Positions 23,078 to 33,437 of a stretch of 44,466 bases of DNA are shown piece by piece. The translations under genes and the position numbers were made by a program. Source of the stretch: Bacteroidota bacterium (GTDB taxonomy: Bacteria; Bacteroidota; Bacteroidia; Chitinophagales; BACL12); the NCBI GenBank assembly GCA_043727235.1, contig JAYSYX010000051.1, forward strand, positions 1 to 44,466, read 5' to 3'. The notes below the pieces were generated by a model that did no database searches, was not told the DNA's origin, and saw only the letters and a program-made list of their open reading frames with translations. The first letter of the stretch is position 1, and each line of letters begins with the position of its first letter.

Positions 23078-23195
23078 CAAAAATATGATATTAAAGTGAC
23101 TGGTGTATGACGGGAAAATTAATTAAAGGATATACTTTTGTTTTCAATTATTTACATAATTTAGCGACTCTTAACAAATTTTAAATTTTCGGTCT

Positions 23196-26100
23196 ATGAA
23201 TAAACTCCTTTACGCACTCGTTGTACTAGTTTTGTGTGTTGGTTCGGCAAACGCCCAATCCGGTGAGATTCAGGGAAAAGTTCTGAATGATAAGGCAGAA
23301 GGAATTCCCTTTGCAAATGTGGTTGCCTATAAAAATGGCGTACTGGTAACAGGAGCCACAACCGACTTTGATGGTAAATACGCAATTCCTGCCCTGGAAC
23401 CGGGTACTTACGAAATTGAAGCTTCCTATGTAGGATTAAAAAAACGCCTTACCGATATCACTGTATCGCAAGGTATTGTATTCCTCGACGACATATTGTT
23501 GAGCGATAAAATACTTGATGTGGTTATTATTAAATACCAGGCTCCTCTGGTTGACAAGGGAAATACAAGTACCGGAGGTGTTGTTACTAAGGAAGATATT
23601 CAAAAAATAGCTACTAGAAATGTTACTTCCATAGCCGCAACAAAAGAAGGAGTTTATCAGAGTGACGAAGGTGGTGGACTTAATATTAAGGGATCTCGTG
23701 GCGATGCTACGGAATATATTATTGATGGTGTTCGTGTTTCCGGTTCACTTAAATTACCGCAGGATGCAATTGAACAACTGGAAGTTATTACAGGTGGTGT
23801 TGATCCTAAATATGGTGATGCAACAGGTGGTTTTATCACAATTACTACAAGAGGCCCATCCAAAAACTATAATGGAAGTATGGAACTTGCCACTTCCGAA
23901 GTTTTAGATAATTATGGATACAATCTTGCCAGTTTGTTTTTGACAGGACCGATCATCATGAAAGACAAAGGTACGGACTCTGCGCAGGCGAAATTCGGTT
24001 TCTTTATAGCAGGTGAATTAGAAATGGAAAGAGATCCCGATCCTTCGGCGATAGGAAATTTTCAAGTTAAGGATGATGTGATGAATAGTTTAACTGTTGA
24101 TCCATTGCGTCCCTCTGTAACAGGATTAGGATTTAATAAAAATTCTGAATTTATAACTGATGAGGATATTGAAGCAATTCCCTACAGATTAAATACAAGT
24201 AATCGCGGACTCGCACTTTCAACTAAATTAGATTATAAATTTTCTCGTAATACAAATCTTCAGGTAGGTTTATCATGGAGAAATTTTCACGGCAATACTT
24301 ATGCAAGAACATTTGCATTATTTAATTCAGAAAATAATCCGGTAGACGATCAAAATACCTACCGTGGATATTTGCGTTTTACTCAGCGTTTTCCTGAAAA
24401 AAAATCAGCAACAACTAAAGAATCCGTTTTAGGTAATGCTTATTATTCCATACAACTGGATTATACAAAATTCTACAGCACTCGTCAGGATGGTGACCAT
24501 CAAATGAATCCATTTGCATATGGTTATATCGGACAATACAATACTTATAAAGCTCCGGTTTATTTTTATACAACTGATGAAACTACAGGATTAACAGGAT
24601 GGGTACTTGCAGGTTATGCTGATACGCTTGTTGAATTTACTCCTGGTGAAGCTAATCCTGAATTAGCTGAATATACTACTGAATATTATGAAGGAAGCGG
24701 AGTTCCGCCATCCAGTTTATTTGATATTCAACTAGGCGGAGGTCTTTTAAATGGGGAATCTTCTTCATTATTCCTTTCTACATATAATATGTGGTATAAT
24801 GCAGGAGTTCCATGGTTCAATTATTCCAAAACAAATCAGGACCAATACAGTTTGACTTTTGGTGCATCACTGGATCTTAAAAACCCAAATGCTACTAATG
24901 TTTCTAAACATGCCATCGAATTCGGATTTGAATTTCAACAACGCATCGAACGTTTTTATGGAGTAAATCCAATTGGATTATGGACCATTGCACGTCAACT
25001 TGCAAACAAACATATTTTAACACTTGATACCGATAATCCTCTACTTATTATTGATGGTGAACAATATACTTACGATGAATATATCAGCACTCCCGGTTTA
25101 TATTTTGGCGAATTTGATACCATAACTTACGACAGGTTATCATTAAGCGATGATCAGGCATATTTCGATCAGCAATTAAGAAACAGATTAAATGAAATGG
25201 GCATGCCGGTTGGTGATCTTGATTATATTAATATAGATAATCTTCCATTAGATGTATTTTCAATGGATCTTTTTAGTGCCGATGAATTATTAAATCAAGG
25301 TAGTTCATTAGTATTTTATAATGGATACGATTATTTAGGAAACGATGTAACAGGTGCACCATCCTTCAACGACTTTTTTACACAAAAGAATGATGACGGA
25401 TTATACACGCGTCCTATTGATGCATTCCGCCCGGTTTATACTGCCGGATATATTCAGGACAGATTCAATTTTAATGATATCGTATTCCGCGTAGGTGTTC
25501 GTGTTGACCGTTATGATGCAAACAGAAAGGTATTGAGGGATAAATATTCATTATATGATGTTTATTCTACTTCAGAAGTGGATGGTTCACTTAATCCAAA
25601 TGGTGAACACCCTGGAAATATCGGAGAGGATTATGTTGTATATGTTGATGATTTTAACAGCCCAAGTCCTACAGTTTTAGGTTACCGCGATGAAGATGTT
25701 TGGTATAATGCAGATGGTCAGGAAGTATCTGATCCCAACGTAATTGCAATCACTTCATCTACAGGTACAATTACACCTTACGTAATTGATCCTGACGCAA
25801 ATATTAAAGATGAAAATTATGATCCGAATTCTTCATTTGAAGATTATACTCCGCAGATCACCATAATGCCAAGGATCGCATTCTCTTTCCCAATTTCAAA
25901 AGTTAAAGACAGAGAAGCATTATTCTTTGCACACTATGATATCTTAACCCAGCGCCCTCCAACTGGAACTTCTGCAAGTCCCGCAGATTATTATTTCTTC
26001 CTGGAAAACGCAGGAGCATTATTAGATAACCCGGATCTTAAACCGGAAAAAACGATTGACTATCAGGTTGGTTTCCAACAACAATTATCACCATCATCAG

Positions 26101-26912
26101 TAATTAAAATTTCTGCCTTTTATAAAGAATTGAGAGATATGATTCAAGTGGTTAATGTGCCTTATGCATATCCGCTTTCTTATTCAACCTACGGAAATCT
26201 TGACTTTGGAACTGTTAAGGGATTAACTGTTTCTTATGATATAGCACGGAGAACAAGAAACCTTAAACTTTCTACAAGTTATACTTTGCAATTTGCCGAT
26301 GGAACAGGTTCCAGCGCAACTTCACAGATCAACCTTGTAGGTGCAGGTCAACCAAACTTAAGAACAATCATCCCGCTGTCTTATGATTCAAGACACAGTG
26401 TAAAATTAGTACTCGATTATCGTTTCGACGATCCTGAAGGTGGTCAGCCAACCTGGTTAAATGATGTAGGACTTAATACTACTTTTAATGCGCGTTCAGG
26501 TGAACCGTATACTCGTCAGGCAAATCCTCTTGCAACTGCTCAGTTTGGAGCAAATACAAGAGCAACTTTGGAAGGTGGTATAAACGGATCTCGTTTGCCT
26601 TGGCATTACAGAACTGATATCAAACTTGATAAAGCATTCACTTTTGGTATAGGTAAAAACGACCGACCTGTTAGTATGGATGTTTATTTATGGGTGCAAA
26701 ACCTGTTTGATAACAGAAACGTGATAGCTGTATATGCTTATACCGGTAACCCATTGGATGACGGATATTTAGCGTCTGCAGAAGGTCAGCAAATTGTGAG
26801 CACTGTATTAGATGCTCAATCCTTTACCGATCTATATAATATTAAAGTACAAAACCCCGATAATTATAGCATTCCAAGAAGAATACGTCTTGGTGTTGCT
26901 TTTGATTTCTAA
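23196..26912 (+). CDS. Very large TonB-dependent-receptor-type outer membrane protein with N-terminal carboxypeptidase-regulatory-like domain
   Basis: Signal peptide; GEIQGKV..GIPFANV..TDFDGKY; plug-like LNIKGSR..YIIDG..IEQLEVITGG..YGDATGG.I.ITT; late barrel motif NPDLKPEK; PRRIRLGVAFDF terminus. Confidence 0.88.
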   Translation: MNKLLYALVVLVLCVGSANAQSGEIQGKVLNDKAEGIPFANVVAYKNGVLVTGATTDFDGKYAIPALEPGTYEIEASYVGLKKRLTDITVSQGIVFLDDILLSDKILDVVIIKYQAPLVDKGNTSTGGVVTKEDIQKIATRNVTSIAATKEGVYQSDEGGGLNIKGSRGDATEYIIDGVRVSGSLKLPQDAIEQLEVITGGVDPKYGDATGGFITITTRGPSKNYNGSMELATSEVLDNYGYNLASLFLTGPIIMKDKGTDSAQAKFGFFIAGELEMERDPDPSAIGNFQVKDDVMNSLTVDPLRPSVTGLGFNKNSEFITDEDIEAIPYRLNTSNRGLALSTKLDYKFSRNTNLQVGLSWRNFHGNTYARTFALFNSENNPVDDQNTYRGYLRFTQRFPEKKSATTKESVLGNAYYSIQLDYTKFYSTRQDGDHQMNPFAYGYIGQYNTYKAPVYFYTTDETTGLTGWVLAGYADTLVEFTPGEANPELAEYTTEYYEGSGVPPSSLFDIQLGGGLLNGESSSLFLSTYNMWYNAGVPWFNYSKTNQDQYSLTFGASLDLKNPNATNVSKHAIEFGFEFQQRIERFYGVNPIGLWTIARQLANKHILTLDTDNPLLIIDGEQYTYDEYISTPGLYFGEFDTITYDRLSLSDDQAYFDQQLRNRLNEMGMPVGDLDYINIDNLPLDVFSMDLFSADELLNQGSSLVFYNGYDYLGNDVTGAPSFNDFFTQKNDDGLYTRPIDAFRPVYTAGYIQDRFNFNDIVFRVGVRVDRYDANRKVLRDKYSLYDVYSTSEVDGSLNPNGEHPGNIGEDYVVYVDDFNSPSPTVLGYRDEDVWYNADGQEVSDPNVIAITSSTGTITPYVIDPDANIKDENYDPNSSFEDYTPQITIMPRIAFSFPISKVKDREALFFAHYDILTQRPPTGTSASPADYYFFLENAGALLDNPDLKPEKTIDYQVGFQQQLSPSSVIKISAFYKELRDMIQVVNVPYAYPLSYSTYGNLDFGTVKGLTVSYDIARRTRNLKLSTSYTLQFADGTGSSATSQINLVGAGQPNLRTIIPLSYDSRHSVKLVLDYRFDDPEGGQPTWLNDVGLNTTFNARSGEPYTRQANPLATAQFGANTRATLEGGINGSRLPWHYRTDIKLDKAFTFGIGKNDRPVSMDVYLWVQNLFDNRNVIAVYAYTGNPLDDGYLASAEGQQIVSTVLDAQSFTDLYNIKVQNPDNYSIPRRIRLGVAFDF

Positions 26913-26932
26913 ATAGATTTAAACTGTTGAAT

Positions 26933-29900
26933 ATGTTAAAAAATAAACTGAATTGGATTTTACTTTTCACCTTGTTCGCAAGCATGAATGTTTATGCTAA
27001 GGAGAACATTGGGATCACAGGTAAACGTTTAAATACCTATGCTAAACTTACGGCAGGATGTTCTGATGCCACTACGCAAGTAGATCTTGACATCAACAAC
27101 GTGCGTTGCCGATTGTTAGGTGCAGGTGATTTCTGGTGGGATCTTCAAAATGATGCAAAATATGAAATTCCGAAGGTGGACCCTTCAACAGGGACTATTC
27201 CTGTAAGCTCCAGTTTTGCGGGTGCTCTTTGGGTTGGTGGTATTGATGCCGGCGGTCAGTTGAAGATTGCAGCACAAACCTATCGCCAGAGCGGAAACGA
27301 CTTCTGGCCTGGTCCGTTGGATACTGACGGAACCATTGAAGAAGCTACGTGTAACGCTTATGACCGTCACTGGAAAGTAAACAGAACAGAACTCGACGAT
27401 TTTTTTGAAACGATATTGGAATATGGTGGAAATCCCGGAGTTTCTGAAACACCTGCAGAAATTCCCGAAAACAGAATTCCAACCGTGGTTCGTGAGTGGC
27501 CTGGTTTGCAAAACCCTATGGCTACAGGTAAGGCAGGAGAATTGCTGAACGTTACCCGCGATCTAGCACCTTTTGTGGATGTTAATTTCAACGGTATTTA
27601 TGAGCCTCAATTGGGAGAATATCCGGATATTGATGGTGATCAGGCTATTTTCTGGGTATATAATGATAAAGGAAATATCCATACTGAATCCGGTGGAGAT
27701 GCAATTGGCATTGAGATCCAGGCACTGGCTTTCGGATTTACGACAAATGATGAAATTAACGACATGACCTTCTATCGTTACAAGGTTACCAATTTTGCAA
27801 CTACCTCGCTCGACTCTACTTATTTCGGACAATGGGTGGATTCAGATCTTGGAGCTTATGACGACGACTGGGTTGGATGTGATACAGTACTTTCTTTGGG
27901 TTTATGTTATAATGGTGACCTTGTTGATGGTCCTACCTCTCCAAACTACGGTGCTAATCCTCCGATCTTTGGAACAGACTTTTTCCAGGGACCTATTAAA
28001 TATACATTTGATGATGGCGTAATTACAGATAGCGTGAGATTGGGTATGTCATCATTTTTATATTACGATAACAACTTTCTAATCACCGGTAACCCAGAGG
28101 TTGCGGCACATTATTATGGTTATATGTCCGGAACATGGAAAGATGGATCTCCATTTACCTATGGTGGAAACGGATACGGTGGAACTGAACGCACAAATTT
28201 TATTTTCCCGAGTGATCCTTCCGATCCTACAGGATGGAGCGAATGTACTGAAGGTAACACTGCTTTCGACAGACGTTATTTACAATCATCAGGTCCTTTC
28301 AAATTATTACCCGGTGCTAAAAATGAAATAGTGATGGGTGCAATATGGGTTCGTCCTCCGGTATCCGGTGGTTGTCAGACCTCCTTTGACCTTGCCCGTC
28401 TGGCAGATCAGAAGGCACAGGCTTTATTTGATGCGAATTTCCAATTGATAGGTGGTCCTGATGCACCGGATCTTGATATCCGCGAATTAGATCAGGCATT
28501 GGTTCTTTCATTAACAAATGGTCCAACTTCAAATAACATAGGTGAAGCATACGAAGAAACCGATCCATTGATCGTGAGTATTGTTAGTCAGTTACCTGAC
28601 AGCGTTATAGAAGCAAATCCGGGAATTACTGACACAACTTATGGTTTCCAGGGATATAAGATCTATCAGTTGGAGAATGCACAGGTATCTCCGTCTGAAT
28701 ATAACGATGTAACAAAAGCAAAACTAATTTTCCAGAGCGACCTTAAAGATGGTATTGATAAGATCGTAAATTATAGTTTCGATGTTACTATCGGAGCTGA
28801 TGTTCCGGAATTAATGGTGGAAGGATCTGACGAAGGGGTGAAACATACCTTTTATGTGACAGATGATGCCTTCGCTGCTGGAAATTCAACATTGGTAAAT
28901 TTCAAGACATACTATTTTTCTGTAGTGTCGTATGCACATAACAACTTCCTGCAATATGATGTTACCAATCCGAATTCTCAGAAACGACCATATTTGGAAG
29001 GAAGGAAAAATATTAAAATTTATACCGCAATACCGCATAAACCAGATCCTGAAAATGGAGGTATGGTGCTGAATGCAGATTATGGCGATGGTCCCGATAT
29101 CACAAAAATTGAAGGTATTGGAAATGGAGGAAATTTCCAGGAATTAACAGATGCTTCTGTGGAAACTATACTTACGAATTCATTTATGCTCGCACCTGTT
29201 TACAAGGGTCGCAAAGCTCCGATAGACGTGATGGTTTATGATCCTGTTCGTTTGCCTGCTGCTGAATTCGAATTAAAAATGGTGGATTCTACAAATAGTA
29301 ATCCATTAAATGCGGATAGTACCTGGTGGGTGTTAACTAATCTTACCGATGGTATTTCAGTTGTGTCCGATTTCCCGATTAATTTTGTAAATGAACAGAT
29401 AATTCCTGATTGGGGATTGTCGGTTACTGTGCACAATGTTCAAAATCCGGGTGGTCAAACCGTAAGTGGTTCTTTCGTAGAAAAAGAAGAAAACAATGGT
29501 TTATTGGGTGCTACATTGACTTATGAAAATCCTAATAAACAATGGTTGACAGGAGTTCCTGATAATGATGGTACTGTATTAGACTGGATCCGTTCAGGTA
29601 TTGCCGATGGACTTTTTGCCGATGTATTGCCAAATCCGGATGAGAATCAGGTGTTTGAAGGAATATTGGGTGGAACCTGGGCTCCTACAGAACTTGTTGC
29701 TTTTAATACAGCAGATGTTCCATATATGCCATTGCGTTCAATAGTTGGCTTACGTCCTCAAATTCCAATTGAAGAAACAATTGGGGTGGATGTTGTTTTC
29801 ACATCCGACAGATCGAAATGGTCGAAATGTATGGTTGTTGAAAGCGGGGAATGCACAACAGTAAGAGATGAAGTAAAATTGGATTTACGTCAGTTGCCTT

Positions 29901-30811
29901 CAATGGATAGTACAAATTCACCTTCATTGGATGGTTCAATTGGTTATTCTTATTTCCCTGGTTATGCAATTGATGTGGAAACAGGAACAAGAGTAAATAT
30001 TTTCTTTGGTGAAGACGGATGTTCTGGTCAGCCAGACGGTAGAGGAAAAGATATGGTATGGAACCCTTCATCCACTTTCTTTGATGAAACCTTTAATCCG
30101 ATATATGGTGGTAAACATTATTTATATGTAACCAAAACCAAATACGACGGGTGCAAAAACATGCACGATTCGCTTCAGTGGATCGGCGGTTCAAAACCGG
30201 AGACCTCTTATTATAAAGATGTATTCCTGAATGTTGTTTGGATCTCAATGCCATTTTTACAACCGGGTTATACTTCCACCGTGGGACAAACAATGGAAAT
30301 CCCGACAACAACTACGGTTCAGTTGCGAGTAACTAAACCTTATTTGTCACAATTTGTTACGGGAGAAAATCTTGGATTTCCTCTTTATCGTTTCTCTACT
30401 GCCTCTTTAGCTCCTGGTGTAAACAATACAGAAGTGGCGAGCAGTGCATTGGATCTGATAAGAGTGGTTCCAAATCCTTATTATGCCTATTCCGCATATG
30501 AAACAAGTTCCTTGGACAATAATGTTAAGATCACAAACCTTCCTCCACAGTGTACAATTTCGATATTTAGTTTGGATGGCACCTTAGTTCGTAGATTTGA
30601 ACGCGACGTTAGTGCAGATAATACAGCAGGTGGAGAATTGAATGCAAAGGAATCGAATACAGACACTGCTCTAGATTGGGATTTAAAAAATGAAAAGAAT
30701 GTTCCACTTGCCAGCGGTATGTATATAGTGCATATTGATGCCGGAGCACTTGGAGAAAAAACAATTAAATGGTTTGGCGTAATGAGACCAATAGATCTGG
30801 ACACTTTCTAA
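26933..30811 (+). CDS. Large secreted protein with T9SS-type C-terminal domain
   Basis: Signal peptide; FN3-like segment (PDAPDL..FQGYKIYQ..YYFSVVSY); CTD-like IRVVPNPYY..ISIFSLDGTLVR..ASGMYIVHI. ATG 26933 preferred to TTG 26927. Confidence 0.8.
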   Translation: MLKNKLNWILLFTLFASMNVYAKENIGITGKRLNTYAKLTAGCSDATTQVDLDINNVRCRLLGAGDFWWDLQNDAKYEIPKVDPSTGTIPVSSSFAGALWVGGIDAGGQLKIAAQTYRQSGNDFWPGPLDTDGTIEEATCNAYDRHWKVNRTELDDFFETILEYGGNPGVSETPAEIPENRIPTVVREWPGLQNPMATGKAGELLNVTRDLAPFVDVNFNGIYEPQLGEYPDIDGDQAIFWVYNDKGNIHTESGGDAIGIEIQALAFGFTTNDEINDMTFYRYKVTNFATTSLDSTYFGQWVDSDLGAYDDDWVGCDTVLSLGLCYNGDLVDGPTSPNYGANPPIFGTDFFQGPIKYTFDDGVITDSVRLGMSSFLYYDNNFLITGNPEVAAHYYGYMSGTWKDGSPFTYGGNGYGGTERTNFIFPSDPSDPTGWSECTEGNTAFDRRYLQSSGPFKLLPGAKNEIVMGAIWVRPPVSGGCQTSFDLARLADQKAQALFDANFQLIGGPDAPDLDIRELDQALVLSLTNGPTSNNIGEAYEETDPLIVSIVSQLPDSVIEANPGITDTTYGFQGYKIYQLENAQVSPSEYNDVTKAKLIFQSDLKDGIDKIVNYSFDVTIGADVPELMVEGSDEGVKHTFYVTDDAFAAGNSTLVNFKTYYFSVVSYAHNNFLQYDVTNPNSQKRPYLEGRKNIKIYTAIPHKPDPENGGMVLNADYGDGPDITKIEGIGNGGNFQELTDASVETILTNSFMLAPVYKGRKAPIDVMVYDPVRLPAAEFELKMVDSTNSNPLNADSTWWVLTNLTDGISVVSDFPINFVNEQIIPDWGLSVTVHNVQNPGGQTVSGSFVEKEENNGLLGATLTYENPNKQWLTGVPDNDGTVLDWIRSGIADGLFADVLPNPDENQVFEGILGGTWAPTELVAFNTADVPYMPLRSIVGLRPQIPIEETIGVDVVFTSDRSKWSKCMVVESGECTTVRDEVKLDLRQLPSMDSTNSPSLDGSIGYSYFPGYAIDVETGTRVNIFFGEDGCSGQPDGRGKDMVWNPSSTFFDETFNPIYGGKHYLYVTKTKYDGCKNMHDSLQWIGGSKPETSYYKDVFLNVVWISMPFLQPGYTSTVGQTMEIPTTTTVQLRVTKPYLSQFVTGENLGFPLYRFSTASLAPGVNNTEVASSALDLIRVVPNPYYAYSAYETSSLDNNVKITNLPPQCTISIFSLDGTLVRRFERDVSADNTAGGELNAKESNTDTALDWDLKNEKNVPLASGMYIVHIDAGALGEKTIKWFGVMRPIDLDTF

Positions 30812-30822
30812 AACCGAAACAC

Positions 30823-31884
30823 ATGACTAAAATGAAAAATATACTTGTTACCCTATTTATAGCGATCCCGGCAGTGGTATTAGCAGGAAATCCTGACCGC
30901 TCGGGAGAGGCAGGCGCATCAGAATTACTGATAAATCCATGGGCTCAGAGTTCAGGATGGTATGGTTTGAATATCTCCTCCGTTCGCGGTGTGGAAGCCC
31001 CGAATATCAATGTTGCCGGATTATCCTTTTTGGAAGGCAGTCAAATAGAATTTTGCAGAACAGAATGGTTAGTTGGATCTGAGATCAGTTTAACTACCTT
31101 CGGCTTTGCACAAAAAATTGGAGATGGCGCTATCGGACTCACTTTAACATCAATGGACCTCGGTGAAATAGAAGTTACTACCACCGAAAGTCCTGATGGA
31201 ACAGGAGCTTACTATAAACCCCGTTTTTCAAACCTCGGACTTTCCTATTCCAGGAAATTTGCCGATTATTTGAGCGGTGGAGTTACTGTACGGGTAATAA
31301 CTGAGAGCATTTCCGATGTGAAAGCGATAGGAGTTTCAATGGATGTTGGTATACAATATATCACCGGACCTGCGGAACACCCTGAACAGATCAAAATGGG
31401 AATTGCCCTCAAAAATGTCGGAACACCGATGAAGTTCAGCGGCGACGGATTGAGTTTTAGAGGTAATGTTCCTGATGGAGATTATTCTATGACTCAGGAC
31501 TTCAGAGCAGAGACTTTCGAATTACCTTCTTTATTGACCATTGGAGTGTCGTACGACTTTTATTTCGGTCAGGAGCATCGCTTAACAGCTGTGGGTAACT
31601 TCGTTTCCAATTCCTTCTATAAAGATCAGTTTGGTGCCGGATTGGAATATGCCTTGAAGGTGAAAAATACTGAAATGTTCATGTTACGTGCAGGTTACAG
31701 ATACGAAAACGGAATTACTGACGACGTTGAAAGAACTTCCGCTTCTACAGGTATTGCTGCTGGAATGACATTCCAATATCCAATAGATAAATTGGGAAAT
31801 AATATTGTTGCTTTAAATTATTCTTACAGAACTTCTTATCAATACGAAGGTTCCCATTGTTTTGGACTTCGTTTAAGTTTCTGA
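30823..31884 (+). CDS. PorV/PorQ family outer membrane beta-barrel
   Basis: Signal peptide; GEAGASELLINPWAQSSG resembles the PorV N-terminal motif; N.AGL, GLSYSRK, DVGIQY, FELPS; terminal Phe. Start at 30823 or 30832 rather than 30769. Confidence 0.8.
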   Translation: MTKMKNILVTLFIAIPAVVLAGNPDRSGEAGASELLINPWAQSSGWYGLNISSVRGVEAPNINVAGLSFLEGSQIEFCRTEWLVGSEISLTTFGFAQKIGDGAIGLTLTSMDLGEIEVTTTESPDGTGAYYKPRFSNLGLSYSRKFADYLSGGVTVRVITESISDVKAIGVSMDVGIQYITGPAEHPEQIKMGIALKNVGTPMKFSGDGLSFRGNVPDGDYSMTQDFRAETFELPSLLTIGVSYDFYFGQEHRLTAVGNFVSNSFYKDQFGAGLEYALKVKNTEMFMLRAGYRYENGITDDVERTSASTGIAAGMTFQYPIDKLGNNIVALNYSYRTSYQYEGSHCFGLRLSF

Positions 31885-31906: not shown

Positions 31907-31908
31907 CG

Positions 31909-31944
31909 GAAACGTTTCTGAACAGGAAACGTTTCTTTTTTTTT
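31909..31944 (+). terminator. Intrinsic terminator after the PorV-family gene, inside the greA leader
   Basis: GAAACGTTTC-TGAACAG-GAAACGTTTC then 9 T. Confidence 0.8.
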
Positions 31945-31961
31945 ATTTTAAAAACAATGTC

Positions 31962-32438
31962 ATGGGTGAAATAAGCTATTTGAGTAAAGAGGGAATGGAG
32001 AATCTGAAGATCGAAATTCAAGATCTAAAAACGAATGGTCGCAAAGAAATGGCTAAACAGATAAATGAGGCCCGCGAAAAAGGAGATCTTGCAGAAAACG
32101 CCGAATACCATGCTGCTAAAGAAGCACAGGGTTTGATGGAAATGAAAATTGCCAAACTTGAGGAGTTGTTAATGAATGCAAGATTGTTAGATGAATCAAA
32201 AATAGATATCTCTAAAGTTTCTGTTTTTACTACGGTTAAATTGCACGATACAAAATTCAATAAGGATATATCTTATAAGCTTGTTTCTGAAAAGGAAGCC
32301 GATATTAAAACCGGAAAAATTTCTGTTACTTCCCCAATAGGAAAAGGATTATTGGGAAAAAGTGTCGGTGACGTGGTAAATATTATTGTTCCGGCAGGTT
32401 CCATCGAATTTAAAATATTAGATATCTCAGTTGTATAA
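31962..32438 (+). CDS. greA: Transcription elongation factor GreA
   Basis: AREKGDLAENAEYHAAK, ISVTSPIGKGLLGK, VPAG. Confidence 0.97.
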   Translation: MGEISYLSKEGMENLKIEIQDLKTNGRKEMAKQINEAREKGDLAENAEYHAAKEAQGLMEMKIAKLEELLMNARLLDESKIDISKVSVFTTVKLHDTKFNKDISYKLVSEKEADIKTGKISVTSPIGKGLLGKSVGDVVNIIVPAGSIEFKILDISVV

Positions 32439-32830
32439 TGCCAACTCTTTTTTCAAGAATTATTAATGGTGAAATTCCTTGTCATAAAATTGCAGAAGAT
32501 GAGAATTTTTTTGCATTTCTTGATATTATGCCTTTAGCTCCGGGGCATGTATTGGTGGTTCCTAAAAAACAAATAGATTATATTTTTGATGTGGATGATG
32601 ATTTGTTAAGCGGAATTTTACCTTTTGCAAAAAAAATTGCCATAGCAATGGAAAAGGTGATTCCCTGCGAACGCATAGGAATTGCTGTTATCGGATTGGA
32701 AGTGCCACATGCGCATTTGCATTTAATACCGCTTCGGACAATGGACGATATTAACTTCTCGCGTCCTAAATTAAAAATGTCGGATACAGAACTCGAAGAA
32801 ATTGCAGTTAGAATTGTCGCACATTTGTGA
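32438..32830 (+). CDS. HIT family protein
   Basis: FSRIINGEIP, AFLDI.P..GHVLVVPK, VPHAHLHLIP; TAATG overlap with greA. Confidence 0.95.
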   Translation: MPTLFSRIINGEIPCHKIAEDENFFAFLDIMPLAPGHVLVVPKKQIDYIFDVDDDLLSGILPFAKKIAIAMEKVIPCERIGIAVIGLEVPHAHLHLIPLRTMDDINFSRPKLKMSDTELEEIAVRIVAHL

Positions 32831-32857
32831 TCTCAATACCTAAATTAATTTGAACTG

Positions 32858-33424
32858 TCATTTTTTTACCTTGCCGGGATTGGCATTGATATAATCTGAC
32901 CAACCATTAAATTGTTTTCCCTTTAGTGCAATTTTTTTTCCGGAATTGAAATGACATACAGCTACTGCAAGTGCATCTGTAGCGTCAAAATATTTAGGCA
33001 TTTCTTCAATTTTTAAAGTGCTTTCCAACATTTTTGCAACCTGTTCTTTTGATGCATTTCCTTTGCCGGTAATAGATTGTTTTATTCTACGGGGACTATA
33101 TTCAATAACAGGTACATTATTATTTACCCCTGCAATAATAGCTGCGCCCTGCGCTCGTCCCAGCTTTAACATCGATTGTACATTTTTACCGAAAAAAGGT
33201 GCTTCTATTGCTAATGCATCTGGTTTATATTCCTTTATATATGCAGTGAGTTTTTCATAGATAATACCCAATCGTATAAAATGATCATCGGTCTTTTTTA
33301 GTTGTATAACACCGTTTATTAATATTTTGATAGTATTTTTATCGGCACAAATAATACTATAACCCAATATATTTGTTCCCGGGTCAACACCCATTATTAT
33401 TTGCTGTTGAATTTTTTCTGACAT
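32858..33424 (-). CDS. ruvC: Holliday junction resolvase
   Basis: GVDPG, AIEAPF, LGRAQG, GNASKEQV, DATDALAVAVCH; ATG 33424 preferred to GTG 33436. Confidence 0.96.
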   Translation of the reverse strand: MSEKIQQQIIMGVDPGTNILGYSIICADKNTIKILINGVIQLKKTDDHFIRLGIIYEKLTAYIKEYKPDALAIEAPFFGKNVQSMLKLGRAQGAAIIAGVNNNVPVIEYSPRRIKQSITGKGNASKEQVAKMLESTLKIEEMPKYFDATDALAVAVCHFNSGKKIALKGKQFNGWSDYINANPGKVKK

Positions 33425-33437
33425 TACTTGAAGCACA

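Follow-up and report, generated by a model that had tools for sequence, protein, structure and literature searches.

This report concerns a three-gene cassette on contig JAYSYX010000051.1 of a Bacteroidota bacterium of the order Chitinophagales; the whole stretch of 44,466 nucleotides (nt) is called the window here, and it is contig C51 of an assembly of 4.09 Mb in 460 contigs. The genes encode a predicted TonB-dependent transporter, a very large secreted protein of an uncharacterised family, referred to below as the cargo, and an outer-membrane barrel of the PorV/PorQ family, and comparison of loci across the phylum shows that the three are inherited as a block. We put the odds at about even (roughly 0.5) that they make up a single surface machine of the outer membrane, in which the cargo, seated on a barrel of its own, is the surface partner of the transporter. 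An initial annotation of this DNA had described the triad and proposed that a private PorV paralog exports or tethers a lid or adhesin on a receptor used for uptake or sensing. The observation of the triad was confirmed. Within the functional reading, the dedicated barrel, the synteny and, by a structural model, the docking of the cargo were supported, whereas sensing and adhesion found no support.

The three open reading frames (ORFs) lie on the forward strand, as do all features given below: gene 1 at 23196-26912, gene 2 at 26933-30811 and gene 3 at 30823-31884. With the ATG starts that define these coordinates, the intervening gaps are 20 nt and 11 nt; alternative starts are a TTG at 26927 for gene 2 and an ATG at 30769 for gene 3. 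The 1238-aa product of gene 1 is laid out as a CarboxypepD_reg-like domain, a plug and a barrel with large loop insertions that ends in ...VAFDF. Gene 2 specifies the 1292-aa secreted cargo, with a signal peptide, some four beta-rich domains and a C-terminal domain of the kind used by the secretion system of type IX (T9SS), and gene 3 a 353-aa barrel of a distinct, triad-linked subfamily of PorV/PorQ. A hairpin followed by a T run at 31908-31946 (12 pairs at 31908-31936), resembling an intrinsic terminator, closes the unit; orientation, gaps and a closing terminator are all as originally described.

The arrangement is far beyond chance, because the same gene order recurs in nearly every locus examined. 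Among 29 foreign loci from a phylum-wide search, 25 have the C-terminal part of the transporter immediately upstream of the cargo. Synteny was counted over 80 named Bacteroidota contigs, all from metagenome-assembled genomes (MAGs) or uncultured isolates and representing Chitinophagales, Saprospiraceae, several Flavobacteriales families, Bacteroidales and others, with a required flank of at least 1500 nt upstream (74 contigs) or at least 1300 nt downstream (75 contigs). The transporter gene lies no more than 400 nt upstream of the cargo gene in 70/74 loci and the barrel gene no more than 400 nt downstream in 69/75, the exceptions being second or lone cargo copies (L062, L065, L077 and L094), a locus that lacks a barrel (L127) and another whose gap measures 618 nt (L112). 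Twenty regions around the stronger cargo matches in other classes of the phylum, with guanine-plus-cytosine contents of 32-67%, all show the complete triad, with gene order and strand unchanged. That the genes are three neighbours without any shared function is hardly credible given that all 20 of these loci, and about 93% of the closer ones whose flanks are long enough, preserve the order, the strand and the short gaps, and given the complete co-occurrence of transporter and cargo in a family-balanced sample of 41 genomes from the window's order. The transporter is found in 36 of those genomes and the cargo in 36, and the same five lack both (G079, G421, G001, G151 and G431, the last 75% complete).

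The cargo family is widespread. Scoring of 8000 candidates gave 4665 homologues at E ≤ 1e-3, and a library clustered at 50% identity gave 7524 representatives at that threshold and 2600 at 1e-30. The closest homologues carry the source names of Chitinophagales MAGs; other source names include candidate division KSB1, Candidatus Kryptobacter (Kryptonia), Calditrichaeota, Ignavibacteriae and Marinimicrobia. Homologues that have been named are labelled "hypothetical protein" or "T9SS sorting domain-containing protein", and a search of the ESM Atlas with the cargo brought back its own unnamed clusters. In a phylum sample of 401 genomes the cargo is matched in 160 at E ≤ 1e-10, roughly a third of these genomes having weak matches (1e-10 to 1e-20) that may be partial. 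There is no cargo match among the 87 genomes of family f25, where matches to the PorV family model are weak (39/87), consistent with a lineage that lacks the T9SS. The cargo is also unmatched in several T9SS-bearing families of the window's own class, f6 (0/28) and f13 (0/12) among them.

Gene 3 belongs to the PorV family in the broad sense. It scores 135.2 bits against NF033709 (PorV_fam, cut-off 90) and falls below both the PorV equivalog NF033710 (56.4 bits, cut-off 250) and the PorQ equivalog NF033711 (52 bits, cut-off 220), and a sequence search of the PDB with the barrel gave no match at E ≤ 0.01. There are eight PorV_fam genes in the window genome, and the housekeeping members of the T9SS are readily found among its contigs: PorU (1301 bits) and, immediately downstream of it, PorV (416 bits) on C290, PorQ on C395 (318 bits) and PorZ on C448 (554 bits). 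Because these genes sit elsewhere, gene 3 is not the housekeeping copy, and the candidate explanation that it is the genome's sole or general-purpose PorV was rejected.

A tree of 64 PorV-family barrels separates the triad barrels further from the housekeeping ones. It comprises six of the eight window-genome paralogs, paralogs of five other-class genomes and 17 of 21 triad barrels; one duplicate locus, a partial copy on C35, one further window-genome copy and paralogs without a phmmer match to either query at E ≤ 1e-5 were left out. In this tree, which was a quick search with groups defined by gene context, the 17 triad barrels form one clade with a Shimodaira-Hasegawa-like approximate likelihood ratio (SH-aLRT) support of 100, and the porU-linked PorVs form a separate clade (97). 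Against the window barrel, triad barrels from other classes score 142-185 bits, and the best non-triad paralog 93. The private PorV paralog of the initial annotation is supported by the phylogeny and by the gene count.

Several other PorV-family paralogs of the window genome also adjoin genes for large proteins, a number of which have T9SS-like C-terminal ends (C358:1115-7317, C369:1-3843, C18:1-7628, C415:4831-7750 and C395:35-4134). On C358 the gene that follows the barrel encodes a 1667-aa protein with a C-terminal part similar to that of PorU (76 bits). Dedicated pairs of barrel and cargo may be a general theme. In three genomes of other classes (G036, G097 and G128) the PorV family model gives 16-20 matches, not all of them separate genes, beside the eight of the window genome.

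The pairing of gene 3 with the cargo was modelled as a complex of the barrel (alignment of 92 rows) and the 260 C-terminal residues of the cargo (95 rows). The model scored 0.84, against 0.00 for the best of three controls; 58 of 80 solved complexes attain that mark, as do 2 of 110 mismatched pairs, counts that hold roughly for a model made, like this one, from custom alignments. The separate runs share at least 98% of their contacts, and the predicted local distance difference test (pLDDT) value of the partner is at least 66. The predicted interface takes in fragment residues 143-254, that is, cargo residues 1175-1286, which belong to the C-terminal domain. The result supports binding of this domain to the private barrel but does not show it. 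Taken with the barrel clade, the existence of a dedicated barrel and its predicted pairing with the cargo's C-terminal domain are well supported by computation, in keeping with the tethering first suggested for them.

The domain that docks in the model occupies 30446-30808 (approximately residues 1172-1292) and has the form PNPYY...ASGMY...KWFGVMRPIDLDTF. Its relationship to the T9SS is real but divergent. Among NCBIfam models, only those for PorZ and PorU match, weakly and through their C-terminal domains, residues of about 1172-1271 (E 1.7e-3 and 8.2e-3, respectively); the PorZ model NF052228 scores 16.9 bits (cut-off 260) over residues 1172-1270 only, and the sole PDB match of the cargo family profile is PorZ (5m11), again at this domain, with E 0.036. 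Identity of the cargo as a divergent PorZ or PorU was ruled out, the likeness being confined to the C-terminal domain and the real PorZ and PorU being encoded elsewhere in the genome. Neither TIGR04183 nor PF18962 matches the window cargo at E ≤ 0.01. When the last 260 residues of 95 family members were scanned, Por_Secre_tail was found in 22/95 and FlgD_ig in 23/95, for which reason the domain is best classed as a divergent, type A-like T9SS domain. The family alignment displays conserved motifs that we take to be the PNP, G-x-Y and K-x-x-K-like motifs of such domains, and beyond them a conserved extra tail that ends in ...KWFGVMRPIDLDTF. The initial call of a T9SS C-terminal domain is accordingly upheld in a qualified form.

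Much less can be read from the body of the cargo. Its signal peptide lacks a lipobox Cys, and the acidity, the 12 Cys and the DVNFNG motif that had been remarked on are all there (isoelectric point (pI) 4.33; motif at residue 216). No Pfam family matches it at E ≤ 0.01, or even at E ≤ 1. An FN3-like segment, also proposed earlier, is weakly backed: a Pfam scan of the alignment found fn3 in 1/10 family members at E 0.077, and a fold search against viral models gave weak FN3-type matches only, with template modelling (TM) scores of at most 0.12. An AlphaFold2 (AF2) model of residues 25-1175, built from 85 sequences, is mostly beta, with a pLDDT of 91.9 and a predicted TM score (pTM) of 0.82. Because that pTM is high, the cargo would appear to be a compact multi-domain body, unlike a fibrillar stalk, and nothing was found that points to the adhesin role once suggested for it. 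A SusD-like lipoprotein identity was likewise rejected, given the missing lipobox Cys, the mostly beta model and the lack of a SusD Pfam match. The most conserved part is an N-terminal module at 27050-28360 (approximately residues 40-476), in which D245, D303, D305, D312 and D332 are invariant.

One alternative to a stable machine is a loose association of enzyme and importer, in which the barrel is a mere shuttle, the cargo is released or linked to lipopolysaccharide, the transporter takes up the liberated product and no lasting three-part complex forms. A fold search of the cargo against the PDB found no whole-fold relative, and the weak partial matches that it did return (query-normalised TM scores of 0.11-0.17, best E 1.8e-5) were to dextran dextrinase, GH94, GH116 and GH161, enzymes with large N-terminal beta-sandwich domains; such likeness to parts of glycoside hydrolases and phosphorylases lends this alternative some weight, as does the description of PorV itself as a shuttle in passages of PMC10202324. 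Against it, the 85-sequence alignment keeps N, P, G, F and seven Asp invariant but not a single His, Ser, Cys or Glu, and the cargo has no recognisable catalytic domain. Since Asp, Gly and Pro predominate among the invariant positions, and those four kinds are missing from them, the cargo is probably a binding body stabilised by calcium or another metal rather than a classical hydrolase.

This alternative is also touched by a group of shorter proteins, of about 520-565 aa, in which the N-terminal module stands alone. All eight regions fetched hold at least one such paralog, and no transporter or barrel match lies near them (L202:7550-9145, L203:7384-8991, L204:7193-8890, L205:6961-8526, L206:7541-9208, L208:6790-8484 and L209:6778-8409); the eighth, L207:1606-10230, from genome G128 of another class, is a tandem array of six on one strand. 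The five short paralogs that were scanned all carry a canonical type A domain, with TIGR04183 over its cut-off, and this domain is presumably cleaved, which would suit a released enzyme. The window cargo does not match that model, a difference that underlines the probable standing of the triad domain as a specialised subtype. A specialised domain, together with a barrel clade that tracks the triad, suggests a lasting pairing rather than a passing shuttle, and cargo and transporter co-occur completely in the 41 genomes; on balance, we regard the loose enzyme-plus-importer arrangement as unlikely.

Gene 1 is, on its predicted fold, a TonB-dependent transporter with a 22-strand-type barrel. Residues 25-93 (23268-23474) match the CarboxypepD_reg-like family PF13620 at 48.7 bits (cut-off 32.3), and residues 129-212 (23580-23831) match the plug family PF07715 at 37.2 bits (cut-off 23.9). 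At E ≤ 0.01 neither a Pfam barrel family nor an STN domain was matched, and a PDB sequence search was likewise negative at that threshold. Between the N-terminal domain and the plug, residues 106-119 (23511-23552) form a hydrophobic stretch, ILDVVIIKYQAPLV, that is conserved across homologues with the pattern L-x-E-V-x-V/I-x-x-Y-x-x-P-L-I; among 79 homologues the counts are 51 for V109, 76 for V/I111, 53 for Y114, 71 for P117 and 71 for L118. This stretch is a putative TonB box.

An AF2 model of residues 100-1238, also from 79 sequences, reached a pLDDT of 90.6 and a pTM of 0.86, and Foldseek returned 173 PDB matches at E ≤ 1e-3, the best being PhuR (8the; E 5e-26, target-normalised TM score 0.67). 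The matches span the whole length of known TonB-dependent transporters, with target-normalised scores of 0.77-0.78 for BtuB, and the best 50 of the 173 are all transporters, at 0.61-0.78. XusA in complex with its lipoprotein XusB (9gbc) ranks 42nd, and there is no SusC or RagA chain among those best 50. The protein is some 450 residues longer than the solved transporters that it matches, and a secondary-structure map of the model assigns the surplus to structured insertions between barrel strands, which are likely to be extracellular loops. The initial annotation had spoken of long acidic insertions; the extra length stands, and the protein is acidic overall (pI 4.56), but there is no strongly acidic tract, since no 30-residue window contains nine or more D/E.

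Three other identities for gene 1 were weighed. Membership of the SusC/RagA group was rejected, as no NCBIfam model of that type matches at E ≤ 0.01 and there is no SusD-like neighbour. A signalling transducer was rejected too: there is no STN domain, no sigma/anti-sigma pair lies nearby (the flanking genes being those for KsgA, 2-hydroxyacid dehydrogenase, GreA, HIT and RuvC) and no other regulator recurs next to the triad, so that the sensing role offered at first is without support. The third possibility concerns export. Oar has been reported to aid secretion of PopC in Myxococcus, and gene 1 might by analogy help to secrete or assemble the cargo; its N-terminal CarboxypepD_reg domain and oversized barrel are reminiscent of Oar-type proteins. 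The cargo, however, has its own T9SS C-terminal domain, the genome has T9SS attachment components and no Oar-type family matches the transporter at E ≤ 0.01, all of which makes an export role very improbable.

The genes around the triad tell of a different kind of setting from that of most uptake loci. Upstream in the window lie genes for PdxA, KsgA and a 2-hydroxyacid dehydrogenase, and downstream those for GreA, an HIT protein and RuvC; as had been stated at the outset, no SusD, glycosidase or regulator is present in the flanks. Clustering of ORFs from 101 loci (100 foreign ones and the window) recovered the cargo in all 101 and the transporter and the barrel in 96 each, followed by greA in 64, HIT in 62, ruvC in 28 and 2-hydroxyacid dehydrogenase in 26. 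Apart from these four, no conserved partner recurs in the 101 loci, and there is no recurrent cluster of a degradative enzyme, regulator, TonB/ExbBD, SusD or inner-membrane importer. In most related loci greA and the HIT gene stand 3' of the triad, as they do in the window (31962-33436), with ruvC in 28.

Such neighbours could be expected if the triad builds a constitutive surface structure or maintains the outer membrane, with the transporter-like barrel as a platform. The lack of a recurrent regulator or catabolic gene fits this housekeeping role, as does the presence of the triad in most families of the window's order, and there is a precedent in BamG-BamH, where excerpts of PMC12578637 describe a FadL/PorV-like barrel that holds a surface protein in an essential machine of Bacteroidota. 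An active transporter is favoured instead by the plug domain and by the conservation of the TonB-box-like motif. Furthermore, the triad is without a match in many T9SS-bearing families, f6 and f13 among them, and is therefore not universally required. We consider a housekeeping envelope function doubtful, and somewhat more so than the enzyme-plus-importer arrangement.

Two further features of the locus deserve mention. The Bacteroidota -7 promoter consensus is TAnnTTTG, and TACTTTTG at 23133-23140, read directly from the sequence within the 118-nt gap 5' of gene 1, fits it and is a candidate promoter of the triad's own. In some loci the triad barrel is followed by extra cargo paralogs in tandem, as at L145:11663-19501 (three more, in G097), in L062, L082 and L120, and at G363:C15:28022-37393, which suggests local duplication of the surface protein.

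Returning to the single surface machine that we favour, its working may be pictured as follows. The cargo, exported by Sec, would cross the outer membrane through the T9SS. Its C-terminal domain would stay uncleaved and remain on its own barrel, much as PorZ remains on PorQ and PorU on PorV, and an uncleaved domain bound to a barrel would in turn fix the cargo on the cell surface. There the cargo would serve the neighbouring transporter as its extracellular subunit for capture or as its lid, as the lipoproteins SusD, BtuG, XusB and DdbD do elsewhere, and TonB-driven removal of the plug would import the captured substrate. The literature offers precedents for the separate steps: passages of PMC10202324 describe the domains of PorU and PorZ as retained and bound to PorV and PorQ, and raise the idea that a C-terminal domain may be shielded from cleavage by its cognate PorV-like barrel, and according to parts of PMC12478041 a transporter of Bacteroidales is often accompanied by an adjacent subunit that binds substrate at the surface, as in DdbC-DdbD. 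A cargo that takes the place of SusD, as the transporter's lid or partner, is plausible in view of adjacency, co-occurrence and the published precedents for partners other than SusD.

Several observations weigh against this picture. The link between cargo and transporter is drawn from strict synteny and co-occurrence, and the retention of the cargo's C-terminal domain is presumed by likeness to PorU and PorZ. Lone cargo copies exist without a transporter or barrel (L065, L077 and L094). The fold matches to beta-sandwich parts of glycoside hydrolases and phosphorylases, weak as they are, may leave room for an enzymatic cargo, and the greA and HIT neighbours (64/101 and 62/101) are unlike those of typical nutrient-uptake loci. 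Finally, structures of PorV with cargo exist, and the favourable docking score may reflect likeness to these solved complexes rather than specificity of the pair.

A wider reading, which we advance only tentatively, is that the triad is an ancient alternative to SusCD across the Fibrobacterota-Chlorobiota-Bacteroidota (FCB) superphylum, in which a non-lipoprotein lid is delivered by the T9SS and held by a PorV-like barrel through its uncleaved domain; one class of TonB-driven uptake, perhaps that of a macromolecule, would on this view require the T9SS. If the single surface machine is real, it physically joins two outer-membrane systems that are hallmarks of Bacteroidota, TonB-dependent uptake that employs a surface partner and type IX secretion that employs PorV-family anchors, in a module kept across several classes of the phylum. 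It would also supply a concrete case of a cognate PorV-like barrel that protects and holds a C-terminal domain, an idea already raised in the T9SS literature. The cargo family is large (the 7524 cluster representatives given above), yet it has neither a Pfam family nor a solved relative. Families f6 and f13, where no cargo was matched, may include the best-studied model lineages, which could explain why the triad has been overlooked. No published description or functional study of the triad was found in a literature search over the full text of papers without their supplements, where catalogues of T9SS cargo or transporter partners could list the family; passages of PMC12611786 likewise contribute nothing on this locus.

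The triad unites two principles already known, that of a transporter served by a surface partner and that of a C-terminal-domain protein seated on a PorV-family barrel, in a combination that we found described nowhere. On the side of secretion, the nearest known systems are PorZ-PorQ and PorU-PorV of Porphyromonas gingivalis, in each of which a large T9SS-exported protein keeps its C-terminal domain on a barrel of the PorV/PorQ family (PMC10202324, in part). The window cargo's domain matches only those of PorZ and PorU, weakly, and the model docks it on the barrel, but the triad barrel lies below both equivalog cut-offs and in a clade of its own, the body of the cargo is unrelated to PorZ and PorU, and the pair shares an operon with a TonB-dependent transporter. 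Type B cargo proteins are likewise co-encoded with dedicated small anchoring barrels, in their case PorP/SprF-like (excerpts of PMC9143113), whereas the triad domain is probably type A-like (Por_Secre_tail in 22/95) and its barrel belongs to the PorV/PorQ family. BamG-BamH, as described in sections of PMC12578637, resembles the triad in that a FadL/PorV-like barrel of the 14-strand type grips a surface protein through its extracellular loops; it differs in its barrel family, its lipoprotein partner, its place within the machinery for beta-barrel assembly (BAM) and its lack of a T9SS domain and of a transporter. On the side of uptake, the closest parallels are SusC/SusD (RagA/RagB), BtuB-BtuG, XusA-XusB and DdbC-DdbD, where, as portions of PMC12478041 set out, a transporter with a CarboxypepD_reg-like domain adjoins the gene for a surface-exposed partner. 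The triad transporter, unlike SusC and RagA, has no SusC/RagA match among NCBIfam models at E ≤ 0.01, and the partner encoded beside it is not a SusD-like lipoprotein but a 1292-aa, beta-rich protein, probably exported by Sec and the T9SS and provided with an anchor barrel of its own.

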